Positions 2,200-55,413 of a stretch of 55,611 nt of DNA are shown piece after piece; the stretch's first letter is position 1, and every line of letters starts with the position of its first letter. The notes beneath the pieces were generated by a model. The model saw only the letters and a list, made by a program, of their open reading frames with translations. It ran no database searches and had not been told where the DNA came from. Made by a program: the position numbers and the translations under genes. The stretch covers positions 1 through 55,611 of the forward strand of contig MQRK01215110.1 of assembly GCA_001938485.1 (NCBI GenBank), written 5' to 3'. This DNA comes from Girardia tigrina (lineage: Eukaryota).

Positions 2200-5090
2200 T
2201 AGACAAGTTACATATGCATACACTATTTTTGTTAATTTCGATATCATAATTTGAATTCATCATTCCAATATTTTAATAATATAATACAATAAAAAAATTT
2301 TCAAACAAATTTTAGAGGAACATTTTTTCTTTTGCACAAACAATTTTTACCTTAAGAGAATGTAATACGATGACTTAATTTGTTATTTTTTTTGGAATTT
2401 ACAAAATTAGTTTTATAATATTTCTTTTCTTAGAATATTATCCTTTAAAGATTTTTTAAAATTCTTTCCTTTTAATTCATTTTAAAAAATCTTCATATAA
2501 GAAATATTCCAATTGAAAAATTCTATTTTAATTGTTAAACATAATTTTTAAAAAATCTTAAGGTAAACATTGATTTTCAGTTTTGATATTATATTTTTAT
2601 AAAATTTTAGTTTTTGTATTAATATTTTACGTTTTTCTGCTTTTATTCTTAATCCTATTTGTTTTATTCTTTGAAATATTTCTCTCATAACGTTGTAGTG
2701 GTCAATCTTCGTACTTTTTACTATTAATATATCGTCTAAATAGACTGACGCACTTTTCTATATTGGTAAAAAAAACTTTGGTCGTCAATTCCTGAAACGT
2801 TGCTGGGACTGTCACAAAACCGAAAGACATACATTTTAAACAGGAATGGCCTGTTTTGGTGTAAAATTTCGTTTTTTCATGTGATTCTTCGTCCATTTCA
2901 ACTTGATAGTATGCTTTCCAAAATCTATCGTACTGAAATATCCATTCATCTCTTCTATGTCCGGAACTGAGAACGCTTGTCTTTGTGTAATTAAATTTGA
3001 CTGTCTGGAATCCAGACACAATCTGATTTCCTTCTTGTCATTCTTCCAAACGCACACAATTGAAGTATTCCATTGGGAATTGCATGGTCTGATTATTCCG
3101 TTTGTCTCTATTTTTAATTGCTTTTTCAAGTTTGTCCTTCAAATGTATTGATTGTGTTCTTGCTTTTCTGTTTATGTGTCTTCTTTTCGTCTCTATTCTG
3201 TGTCATTACAAGTTAATGCAACATATATCCAACTAATTTACCACAAATATACCTTTATTTATCGTGTTGTGTGTCTGTCGATTTAAATGTTTCTTTTATT
3301 ATACTCGGTTTACCCTGTCATTTTTTGTATGTAATAGGAATATTCCCGCCATTATTATTCATCGAAAATTCTTTTATTCCTTTCGTTTTAGGTTCATTAT
3401 AGAATTTTGGCTCATTTTTCCTTTCTGACTTATTTTCAATAATTTTATCATCTATATTGTTAACATCTAGCTCACTATATATATTATTCATATTATTATT
3501 AAATTCATATTATTAACTTATCTTATTATTAAATTCATATTATTGTTGAGGTAATATTTTAATATTTATAAATAAAAATATAAAAAATTAACTAATTAAT
3601 AAAATTAATTAATAATATAAAAGGTCAGTTTGACCTTAATTATAATTTAAAGTTTTAAAAATATTTATAATTTCGGATAAACATCCGATTAGATCATCCA
3701 GTTAATAAATAATCATTGATTTATATAAAGATCGAAAATCAATTATCAAAAATAGTTGATAAAAAATTGAATAAGAACTGAAAAAAATTTTTTTAAAAAA
3801 AATAATTATTATTTAAAATATCCATATTTTGTATATAACCACACTGTAAAGTGTGAAACATAACACTAAAATTTCAATTCCTGAGTTGTCGTTAAAGGCT
3901 CTCAGATCACAATATAAAATCGGCCAGGAGACAACCAAACATTTACCTTTGTATATAATCTCTTTTGTGATTAAAGTGTAATTATAAATATATTTTATTT
4001 AAAAAGAAAAAGAAATTCAACTTGCGATTTTATTATTTTTAATAAAACACAATAATACTCAACATTATTAAAATAAAAAATAATTCATATAATTTGATTT
4101 AGGATTATAAAATTTATTCTAGTGCCAATATCGGTTTCTCATCGTGTTGGTAGGATTTACTTTTTTTTCTTTTTTAAAGTAATTTTCTTTTGTCGACCTC
4201 TTTGAATTTCTATTCGATATTCTTCTAAATTATAACTGTCTCTCTTATTCTTTTGTCTGGTCACTGATTGACTGTTGATTAATTGGTTTTTCTTCTGTCT
4301 GCAATCATTGGTTCTTCTTTGGTAGTTTTGTTCTTTTCATTTTTTATTCAATATTTATGCAACTTACATCTTCTTTATGTCCCGATTTGTTACATCTTCC
4401 AGATATTATTTTTTTACCCTTTCTTCTAATATGGTATTCCCTCCAACAGCCATAACATATAATCTTCATCTTTTGTTTACAATCAAAGCTTCTCTGTCCC
4501 TCTTCTTTGGAATTACAGCACGGGGTGTTATTTCCGATTTCCAAACGTTTCTCCTTTTTTGATTGGGTCCACGGTTATCAATCCTTCAATGATTCTTCCA
4601 TGTCTTCCATCATCGTACTTTTATTTAGTAAAGTCTCCCTTTTACATTGACTGACACGCTTTCACAAACTGGTACAAGCTCGTGTGAAAGCAATCCAATC
4701 ACCAGTATCTCTTGAATATTTTCTGGTATTTTGGCCACTTAAACTATCTCAAGCAAACCGATATGAAGGTTTCAATATTTTATCGCTTCCTGTGTCTTTC
4801 CGAGAGAAGTCTCGAAATAAATTGTTCCGAGTTGTAGGATATAGTCGTTATGTTAGGTTCTATATCATAAGTTGAAGTCATAACACCAAAATCTTAAAAA
4901 TATAACAGAACGACATATTTTCCAAACAAATTTGGAGTAACAATTTTCCTTTTGCACAAACCTTTTGTACATTAAGATAATGCAATATAAATATGAATAC
5001 TTCATTTTTTATTTCTTTTTTTTGAAATTTACGAAATTAGTTTTATAACATTTTTTATTAAAATTTTATCATTTAAAGATTTTGTTAAAA
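2200..5090 (-). mobile_element. Degenerate Ty3/Gypsy element (gag and RT remnants between diverged direct repeats)
   Basis: Similar direct repeats at ~2290-2460 and ~4910-5090 flank a decayed zinc knuckle (ICYGCWREYHIRR, ~4344-4544) and an RT remnant. Boundaries approximate. Confidence 0.55.
2702..3129 (-). pseudogene. Gypsy reverse transcriptase fragment (frameshifted)
   Basis: GIIRPCNSQWNTSIVCVWK, IRLCLDSRQSN, YFSTIDF / AYYQVEM, MSFGFVTVPATFQ are decayed Ty3/Gypsy RT motifs split over two frames. Confidence 0.85.
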
Positions 5091-8000
5091 TCCAATGAGC
5101 TTTAGCAATAATTCGTCACAAACTTGATCTTTCATCAACCTACTTTCCGGTTCAAGAGACTTAAATCTATCGAGAATATCTTAAATTAACAAAATTTGTA
5201 AAAGAAGAAGATTTTCTCGAAGAAATTATTTTTCTACTGCAATTACAATTATAAGAAATTAGATTAAGTATAAAATTTGAAATTTGAAATTGAAATTCCC
5301 TATGAGATTTTATAGAATTAAATAAATACAATAACTAGAAATCATCAAAAATAAAAAACTAAAGAAAGAAATTAATATTAGCGAAACATATTTTTCGAAA
5401 TAATATTTAAAAATGACGTCTTTTCTGGGATATCAATGGCTATTTTACTGAATTTTAGGGACCCTGATTAGGACTATTCGATATTTTCGCTACAAAGGCC
5501 CAACATCTCTGTGAGGAATATTTTAAATTGTTTGAATGTGTAAATGTATGGATGATGTATGATGATTTGAGTATGTTGAATTTAGAATGGTGATTCTCCC
5601 ACACAGATGAAAATTTGTTTTTTTTTATTTAAATTTAAAGTGATTGACTTTTCGAACATAATTAAAATAATCATTTTATAAGTTCATATTTTTAATTTAT
5701 CAATTAAAATTAAGTTTAATATTTTTTGTAAAATTTAAATTAAATGTATTTTTAATAATTTGATGACATTTTTATTATTTTTGGATTTATTGAGAAATGG
5801 TAAAATTTATTATTTTTGATTAATATCAATTAATATATTTAAAAAATGACCTAGAAAAAATTTTCGAATAATCTGGATTAAAAGAGAAATAAGAAAACCA
5901 ATTAGAATGATGACAAAAGATGAAAGACTTTCTGAGAGTCATAATGACTTTAAATGTGATTGTAATTGTTAGAATCTGTGGGAACACCACTCGAAGAAGA
6001 ACAAATATTGATGGGATTCTGGAAATATAAAAAAATAAAATATATAANNNNNNNNNNNNNNNNNNNNNNNNNNNNNNNNNNNNNNNNNNNNNNNNNNNNN
6101 NNNNNNNNNNNNNNNNNNNNNNNNNNNNNNNNNNNNNNNNNNNNNNNNNNNNNNNNNNNNNNNNNNNNNNNNNNNNNNNNNNNNNNNNNNNNNNNNNNNN
6201 NNNNNNNNNNNNNNNNNNNNNNNNNNNNNNNNNNNNNNNNNNNNNNNNNNNNNNNNNNNNNNNNNNNNNNNNNNGGACGCATAATCCCATTTTAACCTTC
6301 CCTTTGTTTGAGCACATTGCTCAGGGACGCGAGGCGGTTAATTGGGATAATAACAATAAAAACAAAAAAATAAATAGGTATATAANNNNNNNNNNNNNNN
6401 NNNNNNNNNNNNNNNNNNNNNNNNNNNNNNNNNNNTATTTATTTTTTAGTATATTATTATTATTATTACTATTATTATATTTAATATTCATTCTTAATAT
6501 TATTAGTTTTATCTTTATTTATTTTATTATTATTATTACTATTATAATTTGAATATAATTATTATATTATTCCTTTACGGCGAGTTTTTCCTTCCTCCGC
6601 AGGGACCCATTCATTATGAGGGTACTCCTGCTTTGGGCGGAAAAGTTCGCCAAAGGATTGTGGTGTTTACAAAAAAATAATTAAATATAAATAAAAAGTT
6701 ATATATTATTAATATTATTATTATTATTATCATTATTATTGCAATTAGTTATTTATAAATTATTATTATAATTGTGTTATTAAAATTAATATTATTATTT
6801 TTATTATTATTATTACTATTATGTTATTATTATTATAATTAAAAAAAATTGTAATAATAAATTATTACTATTATTATTATTATAATTATAATTATGATTA
6901 AAATTATTATTATTATCTTTATTAAAGTTTATATTAATTATTATTATTACTATTACTATAAAAAAACTTACCTATTTTAAAAAAATAAAATATAAAAAAA
7001 TGAAAATAAAATTAGAAATTTTCCTCTTGGGCGATGATTGATCGGTATCACCAATCGGTGTCGTTTCATCGCCAAAGGGAATACGTAATTGGTAATTTGC
7101 AAAAATAATCGTATGTAACAGCTGTCTGTCACTTCGGGAGAAGTTCGTTCACACAAACTGCAATTGGAACAACAGATGTTCTATAAATTGCAAAAATAAA
7201 ATTTACAAAAATCATATAATTAATAAGATAATTGCTTCACAAAAATAATAAATTGCTTTCACAAAAAAACAACAAATGTTCCATATATTTCAAAAATAAA
7301 ATTTGCAAACAACTAATGTTGGAAATATGTAAAAAAAAATAAATTTTTAAATAATTTGATTTTATTTAATAATATTTTTTAATAATTTTATATATTTATT
7401 ATTGTTAATAAAATAAAATCGGGTATAAATACCCTTCAAAATTCAATCACATCTCACAAATTAAAAACACAAATTTAAACGAAAAATAAAATATAAAAGA
7501 AAACAAAAATCAAATATAAAACTTCAAAGAAGTTTAAAACAAATTTTTATTTAGCCTCAATTATATCAAAGATCCCTGTACAATTTTTGTGATTAACAAA
7601 TATAAAATTGTATAGTATTTGTTATTTGATCTCAATTGCAAATAAAATTTACAGTATCAAATATTGAGCTGGGTTCGAGCTACGAACAAGCAACGCAGCC
7701 TTCGATTAAAGTTGTTTTAACTCAGAATTATATTTTTGCTTGAACAGAATTATTTCAAACGTCAACTCAATTTATTATACCCAGCATAAAACGTCTTAAA
7801 CCACCAACAATATACATAACTAAATTATTTTTATTAATGACACTTAATTATCGGATATTGAAAAATATTTGGAATAATTGATTGATTGCGTTGATCTTCT
7901 AATAATTCCAATTTCCACTCTGATTTTCAATTCCCAGAAAAATTCTGCCAATTCTTAAAACAAATTTGTTTTTTATTTAATTTATATGTAACTTATATTC

Positions 8001-32761: not shown

Positions 32762-34752
32762 TGTTGGGTATTAAATTATCTTTAATTTAAATATTATTTT
32801 TTAAATATAAATCTTTATTCTTTAAACTTTAATCTGAAATCTTTAATCTGACTCCAATTAATCAGAAAGGACTTCCAACATAAATATATGAATAAATGAA
32901 CACAAAATTCTTTTTCCAAATATTTTATTTTTCAATAACACAAAATAGCACACAGCTTTATATTGTTCAATTCAATAGTATCAATAATGGATATTCACAA
33001 ATGGATATTCGAGTTTATCAGATCACAGCTTATTTATTTTCAAACTCTAAATCTTCTAAACCAGAGGTTCCCAAACTTTTTTGGCCTACCGCCCCCTTTC
33101 CAGAAAAATATTACTTAGCGCCCCCTGAAAATTAATTTCGAGGAAAATTAATTAATAAAATTAAATTAATTAAATAAATTAGAAATTAATAAAAATATTT
33201 TTGAATCAACTTAGAGAAAGTAGATCGGTATCAGCAGTGATGAGCAATGATATTTTTAAGAAAGGGCTCGCTCTTATTTTTTCTCGGGAATTGTATGAAC
33301 TAGTACTCTAGCAATGTGTCACTGCGACTGACATAAAAAAACAAAATAATGTTAATTAAATGGTTTATTTTATAGAAAAAACAACAATATTATATGAAAG
33401 CATTTATTGAACTTAGAATAGAATGTATTGCCTACATTTTTTCTTTGGTTGAGTCATTATTATCTGTAAAAAAAGAATATTTTTATGGAGGTATTTTTAA
33501 TAATATATTTTTAGTAAATTTTAGAAATATTTTTGTAAAAAACAAATTAAGTTGAGCCATTATTATCTGTAAAAAAAATTCTTATGGAGGTATTTAATAA
33601 AATAATTAAATTTTTTTATTTAATAATATTTTTTTAGTAATTTTTTGAAATATTTGTGTAAAAAACTAACTGAAATAAATAGTGATGAAATAAATAAACA
33701 TGATATTATTAATTGTAAAGCGTATGTAATTATTACAAAATAAATGAATAATACTCACCAATTATAGTCACANNNNNNNNNNNNNNNNNNNNNNNNNNNN
33801 NNNNNNNNNNNNNNNNNNNNNNNNNNNNAATATATCAATTAAATAAAAATTTCCTGGCGGTTGTGAGATAATAAATTTATTTCACGTTTCAATTCACCAC
33901 CTAACTATTATTATTCAAACAAAATCACTATTATCACACAGAAACAATTATTATATAGCCTAATGTTTTTTTTAATTTTGGAACCAAAACTTTACTTGTT
34001 TTAAAATTTTTTTTATTCAAATTTTTTTAACTTTAATTAATTAATTTATTCTTTTTCGATTTTATTCCATTTTATTTCCAATGTATTCATTTCCATTTNN
34101 NNNNNNNNNNNNNNNNNNNNNNNNNNNNNNNNNNNNNNNNNNNNNNNNTTATTCTTTTTCGATTTTATTCCATTTTATTTCCAATGTATTCATTTCCATT
34201 TTAATCCCTAACAATCACATAAATCAATTTTTCTAAATCTTCTCTTCTTTCTTTTATACTATCACCGTCCCCTTACAGATATTCATCGCCCCCAAATGCC
34301 GTCTGTGGCCATCACCGTCCCCCTGGATTGCTGCAGCGCCCACTTTGGGAACCACTGTTCTAAACGAACGATAACCGTAAACAATTGAAAGTTATAATGA
34401 TCTACTTCTCCTATACAGGATACTATCGATCAGAACTTTCAATAGAGGAATATTAATCGAATAAAATAAAAAAAATAAAAATAAACTTTACGATTCTTCC
34501 TTCTTGTAGTTTTAGATTAGAAATTTTTGGGCAAACTAAACTAAATTTGCTGCTGTTTATAGTGTTTTTCATCAGCCTTGAAAACTGATAGAAGAAAACA
34601 AAGACTAAAATATTTTTAATTTTCAATTCCAAATTTTGATAAACTAAATATTATTTTGTTTGAAATTAATAATTTTGCCGAAAGAATTATTTTAAATTTT
34701 TTTACATAAAATTTTATCAAAAGTGTTCATAAGTATTTTCGAAACCCTAACA
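32762..34752 (-). repeat. 3' LTR, interrupted by a hAT non-autonomous element
   Basis: Direct repeat of 40373-41062 once 33062-34365 is removed. Confidence 0.95.
33062..34357. mobile_element. Non-autonomous hAT (Charlie/Buster-type) element
   Basis: TIRs CAGAGGTTCCCAAA / TTTGGGAACCACTG. 8-bp TSD TTCTAAAC at 33054-33061 and 34358-34365, present only once in the sister LTR. Confidence 0.95.
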
Positions 34753-34800: not shown

Positions 34801-35465
34801 AAATATAATAATGATATTATGAATAATAGGCAACCATTATATCTCTTTCAAAACATAAAAGTTAAAAAAATAAGACTTTCCAAATGGCATAAATTAATAA
34901 AAACGTTATAACCGTTAAAGCAACAAAGAAAAATTCTGATCGTCCATTAAAACAAAAATAATTAATTTATTTTTCAAAGAAAATATTAAATAACAATCAT
35001 AATTTCAAACGCAATATTCCTAGTTAACTTTATTTTAAACAAATTCTTCTTCCCGAAATCGGCAAGAGGTCTTTCAAACATGCAAGAAGCCGATTTTATC
35101 ATTAACATAAATAAATATTAATTATATTAATTATAAATCTTTGTCTTTTGATCATCTGTTAAATTTAATGTATTATACTTATAATTGTAGTTATAACTGT
35201 CTTAAAAAAATATATTATTATTATCGACGAAATTATTATTGATGACAAGACAATTATTATTATAATTGTCTTTAAGATAATTTGATATTTAGATTACCAA
35301 TTTTCCTCCCAGAAATTGATATATAATCATCAACAATTATTGCAATAATTGCAATAATTTATTTTATTATTCCATTTCCGTAATTGATATTTTATTATTC
35401 ATTTTTTTAATTTTTATTTTTGATTTTTTAGTTTAGCAATAAAAAGCGCCACTCAGATCCACCCG

Positions 35466-35610
35466 AACGCAATGGAAACGACAAGAATCGATGGTCCCTC
35501 TCGACACACTAGTGGGCAAATAGTCAACCTAATGTGTCGAAACAAAGAGAGTTTGCTAGCTGTGTTAGAAGCGTTTATTCACGATCCATTATTACAATGG
35601 GTCCCCCACG
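35466..35610 (+). pseudogene. TOR: TOR kinase-domain C-terminal fragment inside the LTR element
   Basis: NAMETTRIDGPSRHTSGQIVNLMCRNKESLLAVLEAFIHDPLLQW matches the TOR signature NAMEVTGLDGNYR...HKDSVMAVLEAFVYDPLLNW. No other TOR sequence was seen in the window. Confidence 0.8.
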
Positions 35611-35984
35611 ACGACGCCAAGAAAGGCGGAGACAACACCATAGAAAATCCGCTTACTAATCAAGAGACAACAGTCGATCTTAGAAAAGCTTTGAGATTAG
35701 GTATTCGACCATTTAATGTTCCAGCGCCACCAACAACAACACACTCAAACACGTCTCGAAATCCTAATTGCAGGCCGTCTTCTGGAAATTTATATATTTT
35801 ATTTTATAAGTCATTTTTTTTGTTTTGATTTTTTTATATAATATTAAATAATAATAATGATAATAATAATTTATATAATAATTTAAATAATATTCATAAA
35901 TAAAATAATAATATTAATAATAATAATATTACTAATATTAATAATAATAATATATATATTTTTTATCAACACCTATCCCGCCAA

Positions 35985-37676
35985 GTTTGACCAAAAAATA
36001 TAAATTTTCCCCATATTCTTTTCATTGTATTCATAGTGGCTCTTTGAAAATGATCTATACTCAAAAAATTGTCATAGTTTACTTTTCCTACTCCGTAAGG
36101 TAAAAGGGTATCAATGATTTCATTCATAACTCTTTCTTTTTTAGAAGGAAATAAGAGATTACGTCTTGAATCTTCAAATTTCTTCTAGTGAATAAATACA
36201 AATTGTTGACATCTGATCTAAAGACGTAAAATTTATTAAATATTCTAATTTTGTTAAATCCAATTTTTCGATGCCTTTAACTTCTTTATTATTTGGTAAT
36301 AAAATCCACATTTCTGGTGTTAATGGATATAAAGGTGCTGTTATCTCATTAAATCGTAATTTTCTAGGTATTGTTCCATTTTCCACCAAAATTCGTGTTA
36401 TAGGTTCTACAAATCTTAATTCACCTTTATAGCTAACTGGAAGTTCATTTGTACACTCATTATGTTTTATTATTTGAATTGATATTTCTTTACATTTATA
36501 GCTATATAATGCTTCGGCCATAATTCGTCCAAATACACCTTTTTCAGCAACTAGTATTGGAGCGACTAAATTAGGATTTGTTACAACTAAAGCGATTCGA
36601 TTTTGTAATATTTCACGATTCAATTTACAATCATTTAATATAAGCTCACGATATAAATTTTCCACTGTTGATTGATGAAAATGAAATGTAAAATCCATTT
36701 TATTGCTCAAATAATGTAATAATTTTATATCAGCATTATGTACAACTGTAGCATCGGGTATCCTTTCTTGAGAAACATATAGACCCTTATAATTTGTTGA
36801 ATACATTGGTTTTCCACAACGGTTTTCTTTTTCTTTTCGAATAAATCTCATTCCATCTGCTGAAAGAGATGACATTAAAACTGTTGCTAAATTCCTTTTT
36901 TGAACTGGTACTGTTTTTCGAGCTTGATACTTCTTTGGTTTTAACCTATCTGGTCTTTCTTGTATTTGAATACATTGAGCTTCAATAAATTCTGCTGATT
37001 TAAGAAATGCTAAATTACAATCTTTATAATTAACTGAGTATAATAATACAGATTCTCCTGTCTGACAGCTTTTAGTTCGATAATTACAAAATGGATGAGA
37101 CTGTAATTTCCCAGTAACATCATCAAAAATACCATCAAATTCTCTCAATTCTCTTTGATATTATTCTGATATGATAATTTTATCTAGTATTTTATTTCCT
37201 AATTTTACAGATTCTCCTTTACATTCTCCATCCGGATTCATTACTTCTTTCCGAAATACAGATTCTCTTGTAATATATCCAACTTTGGCAGTCAATGTTA
37301 AAGTGGAATCAATTTTTAGTTGTTTCGTTTGGAATGCTGCTTTACAATTTTCTGGTAAGATTTCAACTGGTCTCGGTATAGCATCTATTTTAATAAGAGA
37401 AGAGTGACTCCATCTTCCACAAGGAAAAACATAAGTTGCACGTTTTACTATACACTCTCGTACTTTTGCTCTTCTAAATCCTGATTCTTGATACAAATGA
37501 TATAAAACATTTTTCTCTTCTTTAATTTGAAATGGATAAGCTTCAGCACATTCCACGACATTCATTAATGAATATATTTTTCTCACTTCTGTTTGTGAAC
37601 AATCATTCGCTACTAAAGACATCGTTGGAGATACACATAAGAATAAAATCATAATTAATGATAACCACCACATTCT
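35985..37676 (-). pseudogene. Chuvirus-like (class III fusion) envelope glycoprotein, one stop, one frameshift, truncated at the TM region
   Basis: Signal peptide MWWLSLIMILFLCVSPTMS then LVANDC, ECIVKRATYVFPCGRWSHSS, YLSNKMDF...LYRELILNDCKLNREILQN, AEALYSYKC, CTNELPVSYKGELRFVEPITRIL. After a frameshift it reads LLFPSKKE...IWGKFIFFGQ. These follow the motif order of chuvirus G proteins. Confidence 0.85.
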
Positions 37677-37899
37677 CGAATTATATATGGATTTTTTACT
37701 ATTATCAATTTTGTTATCTTTCAAAGATTCGTCTTTTAATACTTTATTTCGAAACTTTTTACTTCTTTTTGATACACTTCTACTTATTAAATTACCATTT
37801 GTATCTACATCTGGAATATTTTGAAACTGCAACATATTTTCTTCCTTTTTAATTTCAACGTTTTGTAAATCATCAGTAAATTCGTTAAAATCATTCGTA

Positions 37900-38615
37900 T
37901 CGTAAAATTCTTCAATATAATAAACTGTTATATTATTAATTTCTTTTTCATAACATCTATAATCATATAGATAATTTTCATCTAGTAATTCTAAATCCGA
38001 AAGAAATAAAAGTAATGTTCCTTCAATTTTAAACATTTCTTTAACTTTTTGTCTTTTTTACTTTAATTGTCCACACTTCAGCAGTATTAATTGTACCTTT
38101 TCCTGGAACGTCTATTGCTAGAAATAATCTTTGAATATCTTTATTTTTCTGTCTATTATATTGTCCAAATTTTATTAAAATTTCTTGTATTTCTTTTTTA
38201 AACATCGTTTCTTGCTTTAATTTATATATTAATACTGATCTAAGATTATTTATAACATTATCATTAATGTTTAACATTTCTATTTCTTTAATTATATTCT
38301 TTAACTTTTCTTCATTGACTTCATTTTTTAATCTCAATGTCAAATCTTTAATATAATTTTCAGATACATTCATTTTATTATGATTATTTTCTAACATTAT
38401 AATATCAACAGTATTAATGTTGTTTGGTAATATTCCATAATCCACTAAATAATCTTCTAATTCTAATTCAAAACATTTAAAATTCATAATAAATTTATCA
38501 TTTCCAATCTTTTGTACAAGTATTTCCTTCAAATGTTTAACTTTTTTAAGATGATCAATTTGAATTACTGTAAATTACTGTAAATAAGTCCATCAATAGT
38601 TATAAAAATCTGAAG
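37900..38615 (-). pseudogene. Two tandem ubiquitin-like domains (frameshifted)
   Basis: QIFITIDG/FTVIQIDHLKKVKHLKEIL...ELELEDYLVDYGILPNNINTVDII and LFLAIDVPG...TIKVKK/KVKEMFKIEGTLLLFLSDLELLDENYLYDY show the ubiquitin pattern QIFV..TV..VK.KI..L.F.G..LED..TL.DY.I. Confidence 0.65.
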
Positions 38616-39139
38616 ATTATCTGTCATAGGCATTTTTCTCAATTGTTCTCCTAAATATTTCAAAAATGTTTTCATTTCCCTATTCATCGTTTTATTATAC
38701 TCTAAATAATTCACTACCAACTTTATAAAATGTTCAGTTTTATCATTTTGTAAATTTAATATGATAATTTCTTTAATATTTTTGCTTATTTTAACATTTA
38801 AATCTTTATTCATTTCCATTTCGTTTATTAATCTACTCATATCTATTCTCGATTTATCTAACTTAACATCATCAATTTTATCAGAAACACTTTGAACTTT
38901 ACTTTCAACTTTACTGTTATTTTCATTTTGTTTAAATTTATTTTTACTTTCATCTTTTGATGTTGATAGCATTTGTACACTTGGATCAGTTTTATTAATT
39001 CTTGCGGATATTCTATCAAATTGTGTTCTTAATTCGTTAAAGTCTGTTTCATAGAATCATTGGAACCTTCATCTTCAGATGACAAGCAGTTTATATCGGA
39101 TTGATTATCTTTGAATTTAATTTTCTTCTTCAAGATTGA

Positions 39140-40243
39140 TGGTGATGGTATTTGCGTATTTGATCTACATGATCTGGCAATATGACCATATTTTTTACAT
39201 TTTTCACACTGTATTTGACCTTCACTGTTAAGTTTGGCTCCCTGTGGAGAAGGAGTTAAAGATCTATTTCTAGTATATCTGTTCTACATCTATTAGCTAG
39301 ATGACCTCTTTTTCCACATTTGTAACATGTTTTAGTAGATGAATTTCGATTATTATTTGTATTATTTTTGAACCAACATTGATTACTGACATGACCAATT
39401 TTGTTACAATTATAACATTGAGGTTTTCTTGTATAATTATTTGACTCTCTGGTGTCATTAAATCTCATTGATCTTGAAAAATTTGGACTTCTCGAATAAT
39501 TTGGGCTTTGATTATTGTTATGTCTACCATTAAAATATTGATTTTGTTTTGGATTTTCATTTTGTGGTCTGTATCTTTGCATTTTTGGAGATACATAACT
39601 TTGAAAATCTTCGTCTGAATCACTGTTGTTTGAATATATCTTCTGTTTAGGTCTTTCTATCGGTTTTAATTCAGTTACACATACTGGTCGAATAGGAGCT
39701 GCAGTAGTATTCATTTCTATTTTCATAGCCTTTTTNNNNNNNNNNNNNATAATTTGTATAGTCAACAAAACAAAGTGCTGTTCTTATGTTATTTTGAACT
39801 CCAGCCCAAAACTGATCTTCAACTATCTTTTTTGTTTGTTCTGTCCAATTTCTCTTTTCTCCAAACGCTTTTTCTGAAAGTGTGGATAAATGAAAAGCGA
39901 ATTCACCAACTGATTCATCCGCATTTTGAATTTGGGAATAAAACTTTTCCCGTATGATTCTACCAACATCACCACTTATTAATTTTTCAGCCATTAAATC
40001 TTTCATATTTGCCCAAGTTTCAACTCCATTTTTATCAATTTGAGTAAAAACTTCTCTAACTGCACCTTTTAAATATAATGGTAATCTTTGAATCATTATT
40101 TTTTCGGCCCATCCATATGCTGTAGCAAACATAAAATATTCTGTCATAAAATCTACGAACTCTACGGGATCTCTCCCATATTGATTTACAGGTAACTTTT
40201 GACAACTCATAAAATCTATATTATTCTCTCTATTTTCTGCCAT
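39140..40243 (-). pseudogene. gag: Gag (capsid plus three CCHC zinc knuckles)
   Basis: FATAYGW, LPLYLKGAVREVF and QNADESVGEFAFHLSTL are retrotransposon gag motifs. Knuckles are CYNCNKIGHVSNQC, CYKCGKRGHLANRC and (frameshifted) CEKCKKYGHIARSC. Confidence 0.92.
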
Positions 40244-40345: not shown

Positions 40346-40362
40346 GCACAGAGGGCTCACCA
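40346..40362 (-). promoter_or_regulatory. Putative primer-binding site
   Basis: TGGTGAGCCCTCTGTGC begins 10 nt inside the 5' LTR end. Cognate tRNA not identified. Confidence 0.6.
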
Positions 40363-40372
40363 AATATATTTA

Positions 40373-41062
40373 TGTTGGGTATTAAATTATCTTTAATTTA
40401 AATATTATTTTTTAAATATAAATCTTTATTCTTTAAACTTTAATCTGAAATCTTTAATCTGACTCCAATTAATCAGAAAGGACTTCCAACATAAATATAT
40501 AAATGAGTGAACACAAAATTCTTTTTCCAAATACTTTATTTTTCAATAACACAAAATAGCACACAGCTTTATATTGTTCAATTCAATAGTATCAATAGAC
40601 GTATTCACAAACGGATATTCGATGCGAGTTTATTAGATCACAGTTTGTTTATTTTCAAACTCTAAATCTTCTAAACGAACGATAACCGTAACAATTGAAA
40701 GTTATAATGATCTACTTCTCCTATACAGGATACTATCGATCAGAACTTTCAATAGAAGAATATTAATCGAATAAAATAAAAAAAATAAAAATAAACTTTA
40801 CGATTCTTCCTTCTTGTAGTTTTAGATTAGAAATTTTTGGGCAAACTAAACTAAATTTGCTGCTGTTTATAGTGTTTTTCATCAGCCTTGAAAACTGATA
40901 GAATAAAACAAAGACTAAAATAGTTTTAATTTTCAATTCCAAATTTTGATAAACTATATATTATTTTGTTTGAAATTAATAATTTTGTCAAAAGAATTAT
41001 TTTAAATTTTTTTACATAAAATTTTATCAAAAGTGTTCATAAGTATTTTCGAAACCCTAACA
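40373..41062 (-). repeat. 5' LTR (690 bp)
   Basis: Minus strand TGTTAGGG...ACCCAACA, with a TATA-like CTATAAA and AATAAA motifs. Confidence 0.95.
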
Positions 41063-42763: not shown

Positions 42764-44025
42764 TTAAGTTGGTCGAAAAATAATGGCGGTTTTTGAGCTT
42801 TATACTTTGTTTATCTACTTTGATATGTATATAAGTTTAAATGCATTAGTGTTAGATATTATTTGAAATCTTATGCCTAGCTGTATATTCATATAGACAT
42901 TATTAACATATTGCTGTTATTTTTTAGAATATTTACGGTGCTAAATTAATAATGGAAAAAATTAAAATTCGAGCAATTTTCTTGTACGAATATAAACTGG
43001 GTTGTAAAGCAGCAGAAACGGCTCGCAATATCAATAAAGCGTTTGGCAAGGGAACAGCTTCTGAGCGCACAGTGCGACGATGGTTCCGAAAATTTTCTGA
43101 TGGAGATGAAAACCTTGAAGATGAAGAAGGTCGTAGTCGTCCTGTTTCTGTGAACAACGACAATTTGAGGACAATGGTGGAAACAAATCCCCGTACAACA
43201 ATCAGAGAACTTGCAGATGGGTTGGGCATTAGTCATTCAACAGTCCTGGATCATTTAAAACAACTTNNNNNNNNNNNNNNNNNNNNNNNNNNNNNNNNNN
43301 NNNNNNNNNNNNNNNNCTATGAAATTTGTTCTGCCAATCATCTTCGCAATAAAAACGATCCATTTCTTGATCGAATTGTTACCTGTGATGAGAAATGGAT
43401 CCTGTATGATAACCGACGTCGATCTGCACAGTGGTCGGACAAAGATGAAGTACCGAAACACTTTCCAAAACCGAAACTAACACTCCGTAAGGTTAGGGTG
43501 ACAGTTTGGTGGTGTGCCACTGGAATCATCCACTATAGTTTCTTGAATCCAGGTGAAACAATCATAGCGGAGAGGTAATGTCATGAAATTGATGAAATGC
43601 ATAAAAAATTGAAAACCCTTTTTCCGGGATTGGTCAATCGAAAAAGTGCCATCCTTCTTCATGATAACGCTAGACCACATATTTCAAAAGTGACTCTTCA
43701 AAAGCTTAATGAGTTGGGCTATGAAACCCTGCTTCATCCACCATATTCACCAGACCTCTCGCCAACGGACTTCTACTTTTTCAGGCATTTGTACAANNNN
43801 NNNNNNNNNNNNNNNNNNNNNNNNNNNNNNNNNNNNNNNNNNNNNNNNNNNNNNNNNNNNNNNNNNNNNNNNNNNTGCTGATGGAATAAAACAACTTGTT
43901 TCTCGTTGGCAAAAATGTATTGATGCCGACGGTTCATACTTTGATTAATAAACTTTTGTTTCTGTGAATTTGCACGTCTTTGAAGTTTGTGTCCAAAAAC
44001 CGCCATTATTTTTCGACCAACCTAA
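42764..44025 (+). mobile_element. Mariner element (cecropia/Hsmar1-like), transposase 42952-43948 with a premature stop
   Basis: TIRs TTAAGTTGGTCGAAAAATAATGGCGGTTTT / AAAACCGCCATTATTTTTCGACCAACCTAA with TA flanks. Motifs IVTCDEKW, LHDNARPH, YSPDLSPTDF and GSYFD*. Confidence 0.97.
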
Positions 44026-44027
44026 TA

Positions 44028-45300
44028 TAATCCCATGTTTCTTCAAATTCTCTATTATTTACTGTATCTTCCCTTCAAAATGCATTGTTTGACGTCGAGC
44101 TGGTACTACAATAGGTGGCCCTTCAGTGATGATATGGTGTTTCAAAATATCAGTCTTTCCTATGTCCCATTTACTAGCCATAAATAAAGTCCCATATTTC
44201 AAAATAAGTTTAGATAATGGATGTTTTCAGGTAATATTTGTTTCGATATTAAGATTTTTCTTCTAGTATCATATGTTATTTCTGAAAACTTCCCTTCTAA
44301 ATTACATATCCTACCCAGTGTTTCAGTACCATATAACGCTATGAGTTTCACTCCAATTTTTTCCAAAATATCGACTCCAATTATTACTTCGGGAATTATT
44401 TCATTAGCAACGAACACCACGTGATTTACTTCCAATCTTCGATATTTTATTTTTAATGTGCATTGTCCTAATATTTGCAAAGGAAATTCGAGTTGATTTA
44501 TTCTCTTTTATAAAACCTTTAATTAATTTCAAAATTTCGGCACTGATCACACTAATCTTTGCTCCTGTATCAAAAAGACATTCGCAATCTACGTTATTCA
44601 AAGTTATTCTTCCAAAAGGTCTCATGTCACTATCATTTCCTTCTATAATGTTATGTTCTCCTATTTCCATTAATCTCATTACGTCAGTATCAAGTTTGTT
44701 GACAATTCCTAATCTTATTTCATCTACACCTAATTTCTTATACACAGTTGACTGTTCAACTTCTTGTTCAATACTAAACAGTTATCTTGAAATTCAGTAG
44801 GTTCTTTTGATATAACTCTATTATAAGATTTTTCTTTATTATCAGTCGCACAATTTCCATTCTTTAAAATACTATATTCATTAAATTCATTATTATTAAC
44901 TTTATTATTGTATTTATCATCGTAAATATTTGTATCATTATTAACATTATCATCAAGTGTGTTAAAAAATGTTTTATTAATATTAAATTTATTATTAAAT
45001 GTATTATTATAATTATTTGTATCATTATTAACATTATCATTAATTGTATAAAAAACATTTTTATTATTATCAATCAAAAAAATTTCATTCGGCAACATGC
45101 AATATGCATTAACGTTCTGTTCTGTAAGCCTTCCAAAAGCATCACATTCATTACTAATATCACAATCAGTCATCCTCTCGTCATACTTTAGTACACAGTC
45201 ATACATATTATTTACATTACAATTATCCTTATTCACACATTCGGCTTTTAAAGATCGACTATCATTTACAACATCACTTACTGCGTCTGAATAGCTGCGA
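44028..45300 (-). pseudogene. Gypsy pol N-terminal remnant (Asn-rich linker, protease, start of RT)
   Basis: CLFDTGAKISVIS and VIIGVDILEK (protease), then DIGKTDILKHHIITEGPPI (pre-RT). Ends at the mariner. The linker has a duplicated 29-aa unit (DNVNNDTN). Confidence 0.85.
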
Positions 45301-48300
45301 TCATTTCCCTGATGTCCGAAAAGCCGCGGATAATTCCAGAACAAGGCGCACATAAAACACATCCACTACACTACGACGATAAGACAGAAGACAATATTAA
45401 AACCAAAACTCTTGAGATATCGAAGTGAGAAACAACCGACGCGAGAATCTGCGGAGCACGATCGACAAGAAATTCTGATACGAGATTGCACGGAGATAGA
45501 GACGAGATAAACGAACGGCCGCAAATCGAGAACTGATACCGAGACCAACATTTCGAATCCCAACGTGTCAATAGACGAAATCCGAGTACTGTGAAATCCT
45601 TCTTAGAGACCGCCTTCGGATTCCATCATCATTGTAATTTTTATTGTATTATATATCGATTTCTAAAGAATGAATATATTTTATAATGAAGTTTTATTGT
45701 TATTTAATTATATCTAACCTTAATTTTCACCTTACGTCGATAGTATAGAAGGAGAGTAAACCCCCCCGTCGCCGTCGTCATCCGAAAGCACTTAGTGATC
45801 CGATGTTAAAGCAATATTCCACATTATCACGCGAGAACTTCCCAGAGAATGGCCAGATGCGATTAATCACTAATAGAAATTTGATATTGAAATTGGAACG
45901 GTTTTTAGAATTCAGTCAGCAGGAGTTAGCCGTATACAACGACGACACGCAGATCAGTTGTTGTGATAGCACGGGGACACGAGATAGATCGATCTGCAGG
46001 CAGAGAATAACTAAGCGAAGCAACACCACGCGTCAGTTAGTCGAAACAAATTAAACTGAGACAAATCATGTTGTCTGAATTGTAAAATTTAGACCATTAT
46101 TAAGCAAGCTGACGTGAGATGAGAAAATGTAAATAATGCGTGAGTGTCTGCAGATAAATCGATAAAGTAAGTTTAGACGCTGACTGAATGAGCCGTTAAA
46201 ATACGAGATAGGAAATACGGCGGAAAATATAAGATTAAATAATTAAATAATAATAACTTGATAATTACATAATGATAAATTGATATGACGTATTTGTACT
46301 AACGTAACGAGAATTAAACAGAATTCACTGAAGTGCTTCGATGAGTTGCGGTAAATTAGACCAACATGAAATTATGAATCGGTACAGATGATATAAACTA
46401 GATCGATGTGAAATATTACTTAACAGTGATAAATTTAAATATAATTCTAACTGATGTTGACATAATTATGAATGGTTTCCGTATACAAATGATATCAATC
46501 TAAGGTTTAGATAACTGGTTCAAATCTAAATGATATAAACGATATAAGTCTAAATAAGAAAATTTAAAAGATATAAAATGACAAATGATATAAAATGAGA
46601 TAAAACTTAATGGATAATAAATGTGAATAGCAAAGATTTAGTTAATAATTCGAAATTGTAGAAAGTAATAATGCTGAAAATTTGTATAAATAAACAAACG
46701 AAGTTTCCAGAGACACTTGTTAATGAAAACAGTGAGAAGATATGTTGGTGCAATCTGAAAATCATCTTAATTAAAGTTGAATTTTGCGATGTAACTGTCC
46801 GACGACGTCTTGTAAATAAAATATTATCTCAAAATGACTTAATTTTTAACTCAGATGAAATTACAATGAAATGAAAATGGAAAATTAGTTTTATCTCTAG
46901 AAATCATCCATTTACAAAACCCAACAAGCAAATATTTGGTCATTTAAGTAAAAATCGTTTATCACGAGAGTTGCGCATCGAATTGAATTATATAACAAAT
47001 AATAAAATACTAAAACACTGCGCCATGAAATTCCACTTTTGTATCGGAATTCTTTAATCGATTCGAAAATTTAATCTGCTTAATGATAATATGAATTGCT
47101 GTCGATGTGAAGTGAATAAAAACTTGTTGATATAAATTAAAATAGGAACATGTTGTTGGTATAAGTAAATAGCTGTGAAATAGGCTGATACAGGATAAAA
47201 TAACATGTAAAGATAACGATATATAGTGATAACTGTTATATAATAATGATATAAATCTGAATAATGTTGGTGAAGATATACAGATGACACATAATAATGT
47301 CTCACATTTTCAGGCGAAATATGAGGTAGAATACAGCACGATAGTGCAAATATATCTTCCGACATTGCCGCAAGCTCAATAATATAACAGTGCCTCAAGT
47401 CTACACGCAGATATATCGCATAACAGTGCCGTAAGTTGCAATAATGAATCAAATAACCATATCAAACAAACATGAGCGATGCATTCAACAGAGGAGTATA
47501 CAGCTACATAGAATGTAATCATCTCCTATTGACGCTGACCCAGGTGGGGGGCCCATAGCCTGTTCCGTCTTGAATCGAACCCGAAGGCCCCTTGAGCTTG
47601 GAACTGCTAGACAGATGTCAGGCAAGACAGGAGGCGTCCGACCCGACATACAATACTATTAAAATAGAAATAAACTTATAATGGGTTGTGGTTGACCCTT
47701 AACAATCACTGGGGGTTCTTGAGTCATCAGAAATGTTTCTACTCGAAGGGGTCGTGACAGATGGTATCCTGCAAAATATACTTCTAGTATATTGTGTTTA
47801 TTTTTTTTCACGAATAAAACAATGATTTATAAAAGAAAATTCCATGACTTTCATTGTACTGGACCTCCAAAATCAGTTTTGATGTTATTACTATATTTTC
47901 CTCAATTTATTATTTTTTAACCAGAATCCGCAGAACGAATAGATGCTCAAGAACATCAGAAACACGAGGCTCTCAACAAACTAACCATGATCTATCTGAG
48001 AACACTCAAACAATAAAGTTCTCAGTAAGCACTCAATCCCACGTAGCATTCACAAAGATCCGGATAGTCTCTCATCAAATTTGAAAGTGGGAAGTTACTT
48101 TTTTTATTTTACTATTTAAATACAATCTTTAAAAAAACGAATTATTGTTTTAATATTTATTACTGTAACTTAAAAAAAACAAATAAAAATCCATCTGAAT
48201 TACTCAAAATTTGATTGAAAGAAATATACTCAGATCATCCAATGTTTAAAGAAATTTAAATTATTGATGATTGTCCAGTGAATATTTGATGATTTAAATT

Positions 48301-49082: not shown

Positions 49083-49222
49083 GCCCCACGTTGAGCGCCA
49101 AAAACAATATGTTGGGTGTGATATTATTAGTGTTGGATTTTATATTATTATTTTAATTTTATTAATTTAAATTTATTTGTTTCATGGTATGCTTTAGCAT
49201 TTGAGTTCATTTTGACCCAACA
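49083..49222 (-). mobile_element. Short LTR remnant with tRNA-Lys primer-binding site
   Basis: Minus strand TGTTGGGT...ACCCAACA (49110-49222), then TGGCGCTCAACGTGGGGC. This is one mismatch from the tRNA-Lys1,2 PBS TGGCGCCCAACGTGGGGC. Confidence 0.7.
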
Positions 49223-49389
49223 TATTATTTAGATATGCCTCTCTGCAGTGTGTCTTTACCTATCACTTATCAAAGATCTATATCATACCCGATTATACTC
49301 ATCTGGCCCTAAGATTCTAACCAGCGAAGAGAATCAAGGAGCTCTCGGGTTCTTACGACTCTTACATTCAATTATTTATCATTTCTCTA

Positions 49390-49578
49390 CTATTTAACTT
49401 TAAATTGGATTTTAATATGTTTACTGAAAAGAACATGAACGATTGTCGTTTGAAAAACCTCGTTGATCTGAGCTACTTCAAAGAATCGCTGGCAATCGGC
49501 TATAAATTCTTCTATGTCATGTGACCCATCATAAACCTTCAGAGTCAGATTTCCGATGACACTGGCCGTGGTCGCCAT
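49390..49578 (-). pseudogene. Gypsy gag N-terminal fragment
   Basis: LKVYDGSHDIEEFIADCQRFFEVAQI gag motif. Confidence 0.65.
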
Positions 49579-49595
49579 GTAAGAGGTTTCAATAA

Positions 49596-52500
49596 TGTTG
49601 GGATTCCGAAAAATATAAATTAAATTTTTAAATCTAATAAAAAATTTAAAATAAATCGTTGGTTAAAATTAATAATTTTTTGATTATTATAATAGTATTT
49701 TAATAAAATTTACAAAATATTTGTAAATATTTTGAGATTTGTTTTAGTTATTCAATTGTCAAGGTTAGGTAAAACTAGTATATAAGCAATAGTTATTTCA
49801 GTTACCGACGCCCATTTGATCACTCGAAGAAAATTAATTTCAAAATTTTATGCGTGGTAAACTTGTTTGTTTTCTATTATTGTTATTTTTTTAACTAATG
49901 AATTAATAGAAAGTTTTAAGTATCCTGTAATATAAGAATAGTAAAAGAAAATCAGATCAGTCAAATGTTGAAGAAATTAAACAGAAACAAAGTTGTTCAA
50001 AAATTGATGATTTAAAATTGGATAAACATAGAATTAGTATAAATCGATTATCAAATCAAATAGATTTAAATAAAGAAGGTGCTAAGAAAGTATATAATTA
50101 TGCAGCAAAGATTGCAGGAATGGAAGTTACTATAGAGAAAACTGCAAATTTATTAAAACTGTTATCAAATTATTTACATGATAATGACAATTCAAAAAAT
50201 AAAATAGTTTTTGATGAAAAATCTTGGAAAAGAATTAAGACAGATTTTAATATTTGAAAAACTTGAAATTATGATTAATAGTTGCGGAAGAGAAGTTACT
50301 ACGGTAGATTTATCACCTCAGAGTAAGGTTAATGATTTAAGAGTTGATAATAAATAAAATGGAAGTTGAAAATTTTATTTTGATCTTTAACAATCAAGTA
50401 TTGGAACATGATGAATATTTAATAGATTATGGTATATTACCTTCGTATATTAATAATGTGGAAGTTAAAATACAAGAAGTTTGATATTGAAAAGAAATAT
50501 GAATTAGAAACTGAAATGCGTATAAAAGACGTTGCACTAAGATTAATTAATGAATTTAAATGTGATTATCTTGATTATGAATATATTATTAGTTTATTAA
50601 ATGAAATTGATACGTTTACGGTATCCGAAAGATTAATTCATTTAATTAAACCTTTGTTGGTAGCTCAAATACACAAAAATACAAAATTTTGTTCTAACAT
50701 TATGGATCTTCTAAAGAAATTTTCGAAATATCTTCGTAAAGAAAATTTAAATGTATCAAAAATATTTTTAGCATTAAATATGCCTGACAATAGTATTGTT
50801 CATGTAGCTGAACATTGGTGTATTAAAGTTAAAAAACTTAGAGAAAAAGTAAAACGAATACTAGACAACTCTGGAACAATTAAATTATTTTACAGAAATC
50901 AAGAATTAGAAGATGAGGATTACGTTTATGATTATGGTATTTTAGATGGTGAAATAAATCAAATTCAAGTGATTTTCATGAGAGAATATATTAATGATTA
51001 TGATAAAAATTTTATGGATAATAATGTTATGAGGAATACTAAGGGAATCATACCAATGATCACCGAAAATGAAATAAAATGTGAACCAGAAGTACCTCTG
51101 GAGAGTATTGATGATGAGGAAATTGGTAATAATATGAAAAGAGAAAGTATTTGTGAAATCCAAGAACCATTGACTCCAAGAATTGATAAATCATTTTTAC
51201 AAAAAGATATGAAAAGTATCGATAATATTAATAATGATAAGACAAAACATGTACTTGTATATAAAAAAACTTGTATATAAAAAAAATCAAATAAAAATAA
51301 AACAAAAAAAATATAACTTACAGTTTCAAAGAAATTCATCGATTTGAGTCAATCAAAAATGTCATTACTGTTTGATATTACCATTATTATAATTATATAT
51401 CTATGTATATAAAAAAAAATAATTTACAAAATATTGTGGAAAATAAATTGTGAGTCCATGTGGAAAATAAATATAATGGAATATTTGATAATATAAATAA
51501 CAATCGATAATTATAAAGACAATTGTATAAAAAATTGCCTTTTGTAATAGAGCGAGTGTCCACATTTGTTTTGATGGAGTCGACATCAATTAGTATGAGC
51601 CATTTTTATAGCTCATTATCCTTCTAATAATGAGTCTCGAGTTGACATAAATATGTATATAAATATAAATACAATAGATTACTTTAAGAAACATATTACA
51701 GATATTTTGTAATGATTTTAAGAATTTGAAATTGTTAATAAATATAAGAAATTTTATATAAAATTGACACATTATATTCCAAAATTTCCTTCGGTTAAGA
51801 AAATTAATGCAAACAACAAAATTTTATTTCAGAAGTTTGAAATGATTTGTGAACAACATACACTTCTTTTCTCAAAATCAGTTAAAATGTTGTGTTGGGA
51901 AATATCAGGAAGTACATTGAGTTGCTTTATTGTTTAAAACATTTTATTGTATGTTTTGAAAGACTTTCTTTTCAGTAAACATGTAAACACAAGAGAATTT
52001 TTATATTTATATTTATATTTATTTTTATATTTATATTTTATATTTATAAATTTTAAATATTTTATTTTTGGTGATTTATATATTTATTTATCTATATATT
52101 TATTTTTTAAAGATGGCAGAAATTCATGATTTTTTTTCACGGGGATTTGTTTTTAACAGTAAAACGTTTTGGAAAATCTCTTTTAACTTTTATATTTTGA
52201 AAAAGTGTAATGCTTACTTACCAATATTAATACCAATATTTTTGACTATCGTCTAAATATCGAGGACGATATTTTTTTATTGGGGAGAGATTTGTTAGGG
52301 TTTGGAAAAAGCATATGAACACTTCTTGATAGAATTTTATATAAGTAAAAATCTAAAATAATTCTTTTAGTAAAATTATTAATTTCAAATAAAATAATAT
52401 TTAGTTTAACAAAACTTGGAATTAAAAATTATAAATGTTTGTTTTACTTCATCAAAAATTATAAATATCTTAGTTTTTGTTTTATCTCATCAATTTCAAG

Positions 52501-54165: not shown

Positions 54166-54479
54166 TCAAAATAATTTTTAAACCAAATTTTAATACTTCT
54201 ACCCTTAATTATCACTTGATTTTCACAATATTTGTTCAATTTATTAATTTTTTCCGTACATCCGTAAAGTAAATTTTTTAAAATATTGTATTGTCATCGG
54301 AAGCAAGCCTGTATAAAAAAAATCAGCTCAATTGGATGACCGAAAGTGGTCGAAAAATCAATCTCAAGATTTGTTCCAGACAGAAAAGAAGACAAACAGA
54401 CAGACAGACAGACAAGAAACCAAGCTAAGAAAAACGTGGTAAAAACAACATTAGACCATTAAACCATTAGAAAAACAGA

Positions 54480-55413
54480 AAAGAATATTTTGACTCAGTC
54501 CATCAACTAGGCCACTACGGAATCCATACCACATATAATATGCTACACTTAGAGGTTTGTTGGCCTGGTATGAGAAATGATATAAAAAATTGGGTTAAAG
54601 ATTGCAAAGAATGCAACCTAAATAAAATCACACAACACCCAAAACTAAAGAAAATCAATTTTGAAAGCTGCGATAAACTCGAAGTTATTCATTTAGATAT
54701 TGTCGGTCCACTTCCAACAAATAAGAACAAGAAATACCTAATAACTATAATTAATAGAAATACAGGATGGTTCGAAGTAACCCCAACAAAAGAAATAACA
54801 GTGGAAAAAATATCTAAAATCGTCGACGAACAATGGATTACGAGATACGGACCACCAAAGAAAATTATAACCGACCAAGGACCACAATTTGAATCAGAGA
54901 TTTTCAAAAAAACTATGCAAAAGAAACTCAATAACAAAAGCGAGAACAACAACTTACAACCCCCAGTGTAACGGCAAAATCGAAAGATTCCACCGAACTC
55001 TGAAAGAAACTTTAAATACTTTCTGCAACGATCAAAACTGGTTAGAAAATCTCAACAAAACATTGCTCGGTGTAAGACTGAAAACAAAAAGTAACTCAAC
55101 CGAATCACCACTCATGAAATTAACAGGCAAAAGCCATTTCAAAATAACCGACAAAGAAGAATCAACACCAATCTTCAAGGAAATCAAAACTACCGAAAAC
55201 ATCGAAGCCTACGTTAAAAAACCTTTCACAAGGAATTTCGAAAATAAATTCGAAGGACCTTATCTCGTCAAACTATTAACTAATAACACTGCACTTCTTG
55301 ATATCAATGGAAAAGACAAATACGTAAATTTAAGACGCATTAAACTAATCCAACAAAACAATAACAATCACTTTCCAGACACGAACAAACATGACAAAAA
55401 CAGCAAAAAATGA
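54480..55413 (+). pseudogene. Gypsy integrase (one frameshift)
   Basis: H..GHYG, WPGM, CKEC, IHLDIVGPLP, IITDQGPQFES, YNPQCNGKIERFHRTLK and KFEGPY. Confidence 0.93.

Follow-up and report, generated by a model that had tools for sequence, protein, structure and literature searches.

Among the described systems closest to the retroelement studied here, two come from flatworms. According to the Burro section of PMC6431247, planarian Burro has an in-frame env and, between Gag and env, two domains, one BCL2-like and one Ubi2/SUMO-like (PF11976); for the giant gypsy elements Burro and GYPSM1, that paper cites Grohme 2018 and Jurka 2007. The GAG-ENV-POL order with a glycoprotein B (gB)-type env has been published for flatworms, nematodes, and bryozoans, in the sections of PMC13524379 on these elements. 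We analyzed an AT-rich 55.6-kb contig of Girardia tigrina (MQRK01215110.1; its 55,611 nucleotides are hereafter the window), which is part of a 1.43-Gb genome and holds two disrupted copies, A and B, of related errantivirus-like elements. Between nucleocapsid and Env, both copies encode a module in which a four-helix bundle followed by a ubiquitin-like domain (UBL) occurs twice. A UBL at the Gag-Env junction was already known, as the Burro section reported one in 2019 (PMC6431247); the new part of the finding is that the bundle and the UBL are paired as a repeated unit. We favor, with a probability of roughly 40%, the reading that this twice-repeated bundle plus non-conjugatable UBL in the Gag-Env-Pol frame is a host-binding accessory adaptor.

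As Burro is described in that section, the element shares with it a CCHC Gag, a UBL, and an env that is mononegavirus-like and lies in frame between gag and pol, all in one polyprotein. However, the element is compact (3,222 amino acids instead of 4,873–5,140 for Burro), lacks the BCL2-like domain (no matches in families A–F, loci L001–L102), and has two UBLs, each behind a bundle, which the Burro section does not mention. With Smed_errantivirus_1 from Schmidtea, the element shares the GAG-ENV-POL order and an env of the herpes simplex virus gB type, and a count by eye over the first 69 positions finds the two envs (that of copy A and the one in supplement file 3 of PMC13524379) to agree at 49, in keeping with a planarian-type flatworm host. 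The word "ubiquitin" occurs zero times in the main text of that paper and in the seven supplements searched.

Copy A lies on the minus strand. Its parts are, in order, a long terminal repeat (LTR)-like repeat, a primer-binding-site-like stretch, a gag that encodes three zinc knuckles, the module, a stretch resembling a signal peptide, and an env of the gB type, which stops short near 35982. Copy B comes from a sister family and comprises only an internal fragment of 1.37 kb. Both are disrupted by stops and frameshifts, and neither has pol. Both families are abundant: a first look gave 1,041 candidates for the copy A family and 659 for the copy B family, with full-length matches at 91–96% identity; 40 candidates were scored per family. 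A natural open frame crosses both UBLs in 22 of 60 fetched loci, and these natural frames were the input to all searches and folds.

The whole element can be seen in family B, for which two outside contigs (10.5 and 10.7 kb) each hold one 3,222-amino-acid open reading frame (ORF) that encodes Gag, the module, a gB-type Env, protease, reverse transcriptase, ribonuclease H, and integrase. In one of these (P0018), PF24664 matches at 1140–1523 (E = 5e-85), upstream of the protease at 1651, and the ectodomain is flanked by hydrophobic peaks at 881–899 and 1435–1453. Protease or reverse transcriptase also lies downstream of env in family-A loci L061, L064, L068, and L070. The Ty3/gypsy errantivirus features that we found include a capsid and CCHC Gag, a gB-type env between gag and pol, and the order protease, reverse transcriptase, ribonuclease H, integrase (the pol order comes from family B). 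Because the module lies upstream of the internal signal peptide of Env, we infer that it is cytosolic; with the ectodomain flanked by the two hydrophobic peaks, Env would be lumenal, and Gag and Pol would be on the cytosolic side together with the module. A Pfam scan of the family B ORF identified no MATH, BIR, ankyrin, or dUTPase domain. The ORF of P0018 continues for 460 amino acids past the integrase (2760–3222); this stretch is hydrophobic near its start, is transmembrane-like at 3173–3191, looks by eye like another small membrane protein whose repeats are beta-rich, and has no Pfam match at E 0.05.

The sequence-only reading of the window had described two repeats with the spacing of a ubiquitin fold in each copy, neither ending in di-Gly, and had expected a beta-grasp fold. 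We found the repeats in both copies, along with the hallmark motifs that it listed (DYGILP..IN.V, FLA...P, W.IKVKK, and EL.DE.Y.YDY); the final K of W.IKVKK in copy A falls at a frameshift and is absent from open family-A copies. Fold models of the natural frames gave the expected beta-grasp, at about 20% identity to ubiquitin-family chains, and no GG follows either UBL in six natural frames. Together with the dN/dS of shared changes (ratio of nonsynonymous to synonymous changes; see below), these results bear out the claim of integral, non-conjugatable UBL modules under selection. The same reading had named the pestivirus processing signal as a known parallel; for the element, the missing di-Gly and the low identity to ubiquitin-family chains argue against a signal of that style. 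In bovine viral diarrhea virus, a pestivirus, the insertions are recent, near-exact host ubiquitin and are cleaved after the di-Gly. The element shares with it a ubiquitin fold within a viral polyprotein, but its UBLs are old, diverged, and without di-Gly.

The best PDB sequence match to UBL2 is the UBL of UHRF1 (E = 3e-4); the match spans 42 residues and is no proof of descent. The element's UBLs share with the UHRF1 UBL and other type II UBLs a beta-grasp without di-Gly inside a larger protein, and, in unit 2, a Phe at the position of ubiquitin's Ile44 (8/8 rows). The UHRF1 UBL binds the backside of E2 ubiquitin-conjugating enzymes via Phe46 at that position, according to the part of PMC6242706 on this contact. 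In contrast to UHRF1, the module belongs to a retroelement and lacks RING, SRA, and the rest of the UHRF1 domains. Across units, the Ile44 position is hydrophobic in 23/30, with Asn in unit 1 of family A, and the Val70 position is Lys in unit 1 of families B–F. We considered and rejected a head-to-tail di-ubiquitin or ISG15 mimic: the di-ubiquitin matches from Foldseek come from two separate UBLs with a bundle of 75–85 amino acids between them (whole root-mean-square deviation, 10–18 Å).

The bundle is predicted to have a fold of the TND (N-terminal domain of TFIIS)/LEDGF integrase-binding domain (IBD) type. The modeled fold of bundle 2 resembles the LEDGF/HRP2 IBD-TND family with a template-modeling score of up to 0.74, at about 20% identity, and a bundle profile weakly matched the LEDGF IBD (E = 0.1) over the first helices. 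Nothing in Pfam scored above the cut-off, and PF08711 and PF11467 were matched by 0 of 18 bundle members. Unlike the domains of LEDGF/p75 and HRP2, then, the bundle has no Pfam signature; it is also retroelement-encoded, and its fusion partner is a UBL where theirs is a PWWP reader. TNDs bind short motifs of elongation and chromatin factors, and those of LEDGF and HRP2 are targets of lentiviral integrases; the viral-mimicry passage of the same review describes viral use of host TNDs, none of them element-encoded (PMC9987994, sections on partners and mimicry). A pattern search of six frames found no TND-interacting motif (TIM) within the element. No cellular TND-UBL fusion was among 12 matches in 1.84 billion representatives. 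As for a host donor gene, the 13 loci fetched for the genome's LEDGF-like, TFIIS, and MED26-like genes had no significant match to the bundle or unit profile (best E about 0.1), and we dropped this candidate; host LEDGF/HDGFL2-like, TFIIS-like, and MED26-like exons were seen in L143 and L148–L155, several of them on near-identical contigs. Neither a TND/IBD-like domain encoded by a retroelement nor a bundle-UBL unit turned up in the literature searched (Repbase, Grohme 2018, and most subscription papers were outside its scope).

An iterated profile defined the repeat unit as a helical bundle plus UBL of about 157 amino acids (456–612 and 622–780 in P0001). It occurs twice in families A–F, with a single unit in family E. 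Family G likewise has it twice, and Burro-like ORFs and five unnamed proteins from outside also contain it. PF24664 was used to score 68 env candidates; of the 40 loci fetched from these, 30 have the unit at E below 1e-4; the profile was grown from the same loci, so this count is not independent. Its best match on reversed sequences had E = 0.003. Of the ten loci without a match, upstream truncation accounts for two and masking for one, leaving seven. In a tree of 24 units, which does not resolve the deeper branches, units 1 and 2 of families A–F form separate supported clades (99/95 and 98/98), and the duplication is therefore older than the split of these families. Five families retain both units, at 36–78% identity and with a single internal deletion (bundle 2 of family A lacks five residues of the helix1-helix2 loop that B, C, D, and F all have). 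The unit is found even in lineages whose env is only 27–44% identical.

Some relatives carry other domains nearby. A Bcl-2-like domain precedes env in 27/28 distant env loci, in 0/12 close env loci, and in none of L001–L102; the profile used was built from the domains of seven distant env loci and matches Bcl-xL with E = 0.0015. Family E (L103, L106–L116, and L120; for instance G000:C228453) comprises gB-env elements with one unit. Their Bcl-2-like domain sits immediately ahead of the env signal peptide, and this peptide could act as the domain's tail anchor; these elements also have an AT-hook-like RGRP stretch (Pfam AT_hook E = 0.085–0.17, below the cut-off). The Burro-like ORFs (L121–L130 and L136; for instance G000:C249044) are open for up to 4,142 amino acids, with a bundle-UBL unit, a Bcl-2-like domain before env, and, in addition, one or more UBLs that stand alone (Pfam ubiquitin E = 3e-4 to 5e-3). 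Family G (L186–L188) has two units; a 150-residue helical segment before the signal peptide, which does not score on the Bcl-2-like profile, is present in L187 and L188 and gone in L186. The outside proteins with the unit are P0003, P0005, P0006, P0007, and P0008 (ENA/JGI). P0003 has two units, P0007 and P0008 are Gag proteins, and the C-terminal end of P0008 has a BH2-like motif. The bundle-UBL module links the giant elements of the Burro kind with compact errantiviruses of the planarian type, and it shows the Gag-Env junction as a slot whose cargo has the folds of host regulators (UBL, TND-like, and Bcl-2-like).

Dead copies decay neutrally, so a plain dN/dS near 1 across copies would be a weak refutation of selection; we separated shared from private changes instead. 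(Values are pairwise counts, with intervals from codon bootstraps that ignore the dependence among pairs.) In family A (40 copies), changes common to at least three copies gave 0.21 (0.09–0.39) for the UBLs and 0.34 for the bundles, and private changes gave 0.62 and 0.72. Elsewhere in family A, dN/dS was 0.12 for the spacer, 0.33 for the linker, and 0.06 for env. In family B (30 copies), dN/dS was 0.45 (0.19–1.35) for the UBLs and 0.14 for bundle 2. Between families (one copy each), dN/dS was 0.17–0.31 among B, C, D, and F (60–78% identity) and 0.49–0.62 against A (36–39% identity, with synonymous sites near saturation). The module is under purifying selection, though not beyond that of its linkers, and it diverges faster than the capsid (63%) or env (70–75%).

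We read the unit as a two-handed adaptor because TNDs bind motifs of host factors, because those of LEDGF and HRP2 are bound by lentiviral integrases, and because unit 2 has the UHRF1-like Phe. The bundle would grip transcription or chromatin factors, or the element's own integrase, while the UBL would grip readers of the ubiquitin system. The element's protease would probably free the module from Gag and from the membrane, and the module would then act in the nucleus, favoring transcription or integration of the element; its place in the polyprotein is the one that a Bcl-2-like domain occupies in relatives. A more specific version, which we consider quite doubtful, is an element-encoded LEDGF-like tether: the bundle would bind either the element's integrase or elongation factors with a TIM, the UBL would dock on chromatin-bound ubiquitin machinery, and the element would so steer its integration or transcription through a captured copy of the fold for which lentiviruses turn to the host.

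It is less probable, though still worth weighing, that the UBLs are a budding signal that replaces ubiquitin or a late domain on Gag and recruits the endosomal sorting machinery ESCRT, with the bundle as a spacer or as a presenter of the UBL. The module lies directly after the nucleocapsid, the usual place of a late domain (those of HIV p6 sit after the nucleocapsid). Also, six natural frames (some partial or partly masked) contain no PTAP, PPxY, or YPxL, and a single ORF would place a UBL on every Gag. Fused ubiquitin can substitute for a late domain but needs the L8/I44 patch (PMC2958808, on such fusions). The Ile44 position is mostly hydrophobic, as noted, yet the low identity to ubiquitin-family chains, the Phe and Asn at this position, and the Lys at Val70 fit poorly with such a patch. 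Budding also leaves unexplained why a TND-like bundle precedes each UBL and is kept with it across lineages, or why relatives have additional UBLs and a Bcl-2-like domain.

Two further readings seem rather unlikely to us. The UBLs might be proteasome- or p97-docking tags (of the Rad23, FAT10, or midnolin type); they would either remove the Gag-Env junction tethered in the membrane or adjust the amount of Gag relative to Env and Pol, as one ORF yields all three at 1:1:1. Or the module might be old cargo, a captured host fragment retained as a structural spacer only because it folds well and sits in frame between Gag and Env. The rapid divergence, a UBL dN/dS not below that of spacer and linker, the change in unit number from one to two, and the gain and loss of additional domains between families are consistent with a spacer. 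Retention of both units in five families with one small deletion, and of the unit beside very diverged envs, argues against it, as does L186, which lost its helical segment and kept both units (a single case). Least probable is a decoy, in which a freed unit soaks up host proteins (readers of ubiquitin, E2 enzymes, or silencing factors with a TIM) and blunts anti-transposon or cell-death responses without tethering: the Bcl-2-like domains in the same slot, the UHRF1-like Phe patch, and the proposal that Burro meddles with apoptosis and ubiquitination (Burro section of PMC6431247) would suit it, but a fixed two-domain unit is better suited to bridging than to soaking up.

The coordinates of both copies are given in Table 1.

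Table 1. Features of copies A and B in the window.
Feature	Position	Strand	Remarks
5' LTR-like repeat, copy A	40374..40676	-	right edge approximate; second copy 32763-33066; edges by eye
Primer-binding-site-like stretch	40350..40362	-	starts TGG, ~10 nt inside LTR end; by eye
gag, capsid region and 3 CCHC zinc knuckles	39029..40243	-	frameshifted; Retrotrans_gag E 6e-4, zf-CCHC E 5e-11
Helical bundle 1, copy A	38619..38864	-	TND/LEDGF-IBD-like via homology to bundle 2
UBL1, copy A	38389..38618	-	frameshift near start
Helical bundle 2, copy A	38134..38364	-	
UBL2, copy A	37908..38133	-	frameshift near 38060; closest solved sequence UHRF1 UBL (E 3e-4)
Linker, UBL2 to env signal peptide	37668..37907	-	acidic then basic
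Env internal signal-peptide-like hydrophobic stretch	37608..37673	-	hydropathy peak 881-899 in P0018
gB-type env (Monjiviricetes_fusion, PF24664)	35982..37607	-	stops; truncated before transmembrane end; E 1e-30, 1e-16, 6e-6
Copy B, spacer to just before env signal peptide	49905..51278	+	
Helical bundle 1, copy B	50015..50258	+	frameshift near 50200
UBL1, copy B	50259..50478	+	frameshift near 50341
Helical bundle 2, copy B	50504..50752	+	
UBL2, copy B	50753..50980	+	Rad60-SLD E 0.03

The LTR-like pair of copy A belongs to repeat family D7 (237 nt, 96%), and family-A loci L064, L068, and L070 match both of its places. Elsewhere in the window, a short PIKK-type kinase fragment (35424–35828, plus strand; PI3_PI4_kinase E = 0.02) adjoins the env break of copy A and is followed by AAT-rich repeats. 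The window also contains a mariner-like transposase (42928–43948, plus strand; by eye), a gypsy protease fragment (44199–45365, minus strand; E = 3e-4), a primer-binding-site-like stretch with a gag-like start (49085–49662, minus strand; by eye), and an integrase fragment (54471–54971, plus strand; E = 7e-16).

Lentiviruses get to transcribed chromatin via the TND of host LEDGF. An element that itself encodes a TND-like fold, in constant pairing with a UBL, would turn this strategy around. The unit is a small soluble fragment, so its partners could be tested without virus work.
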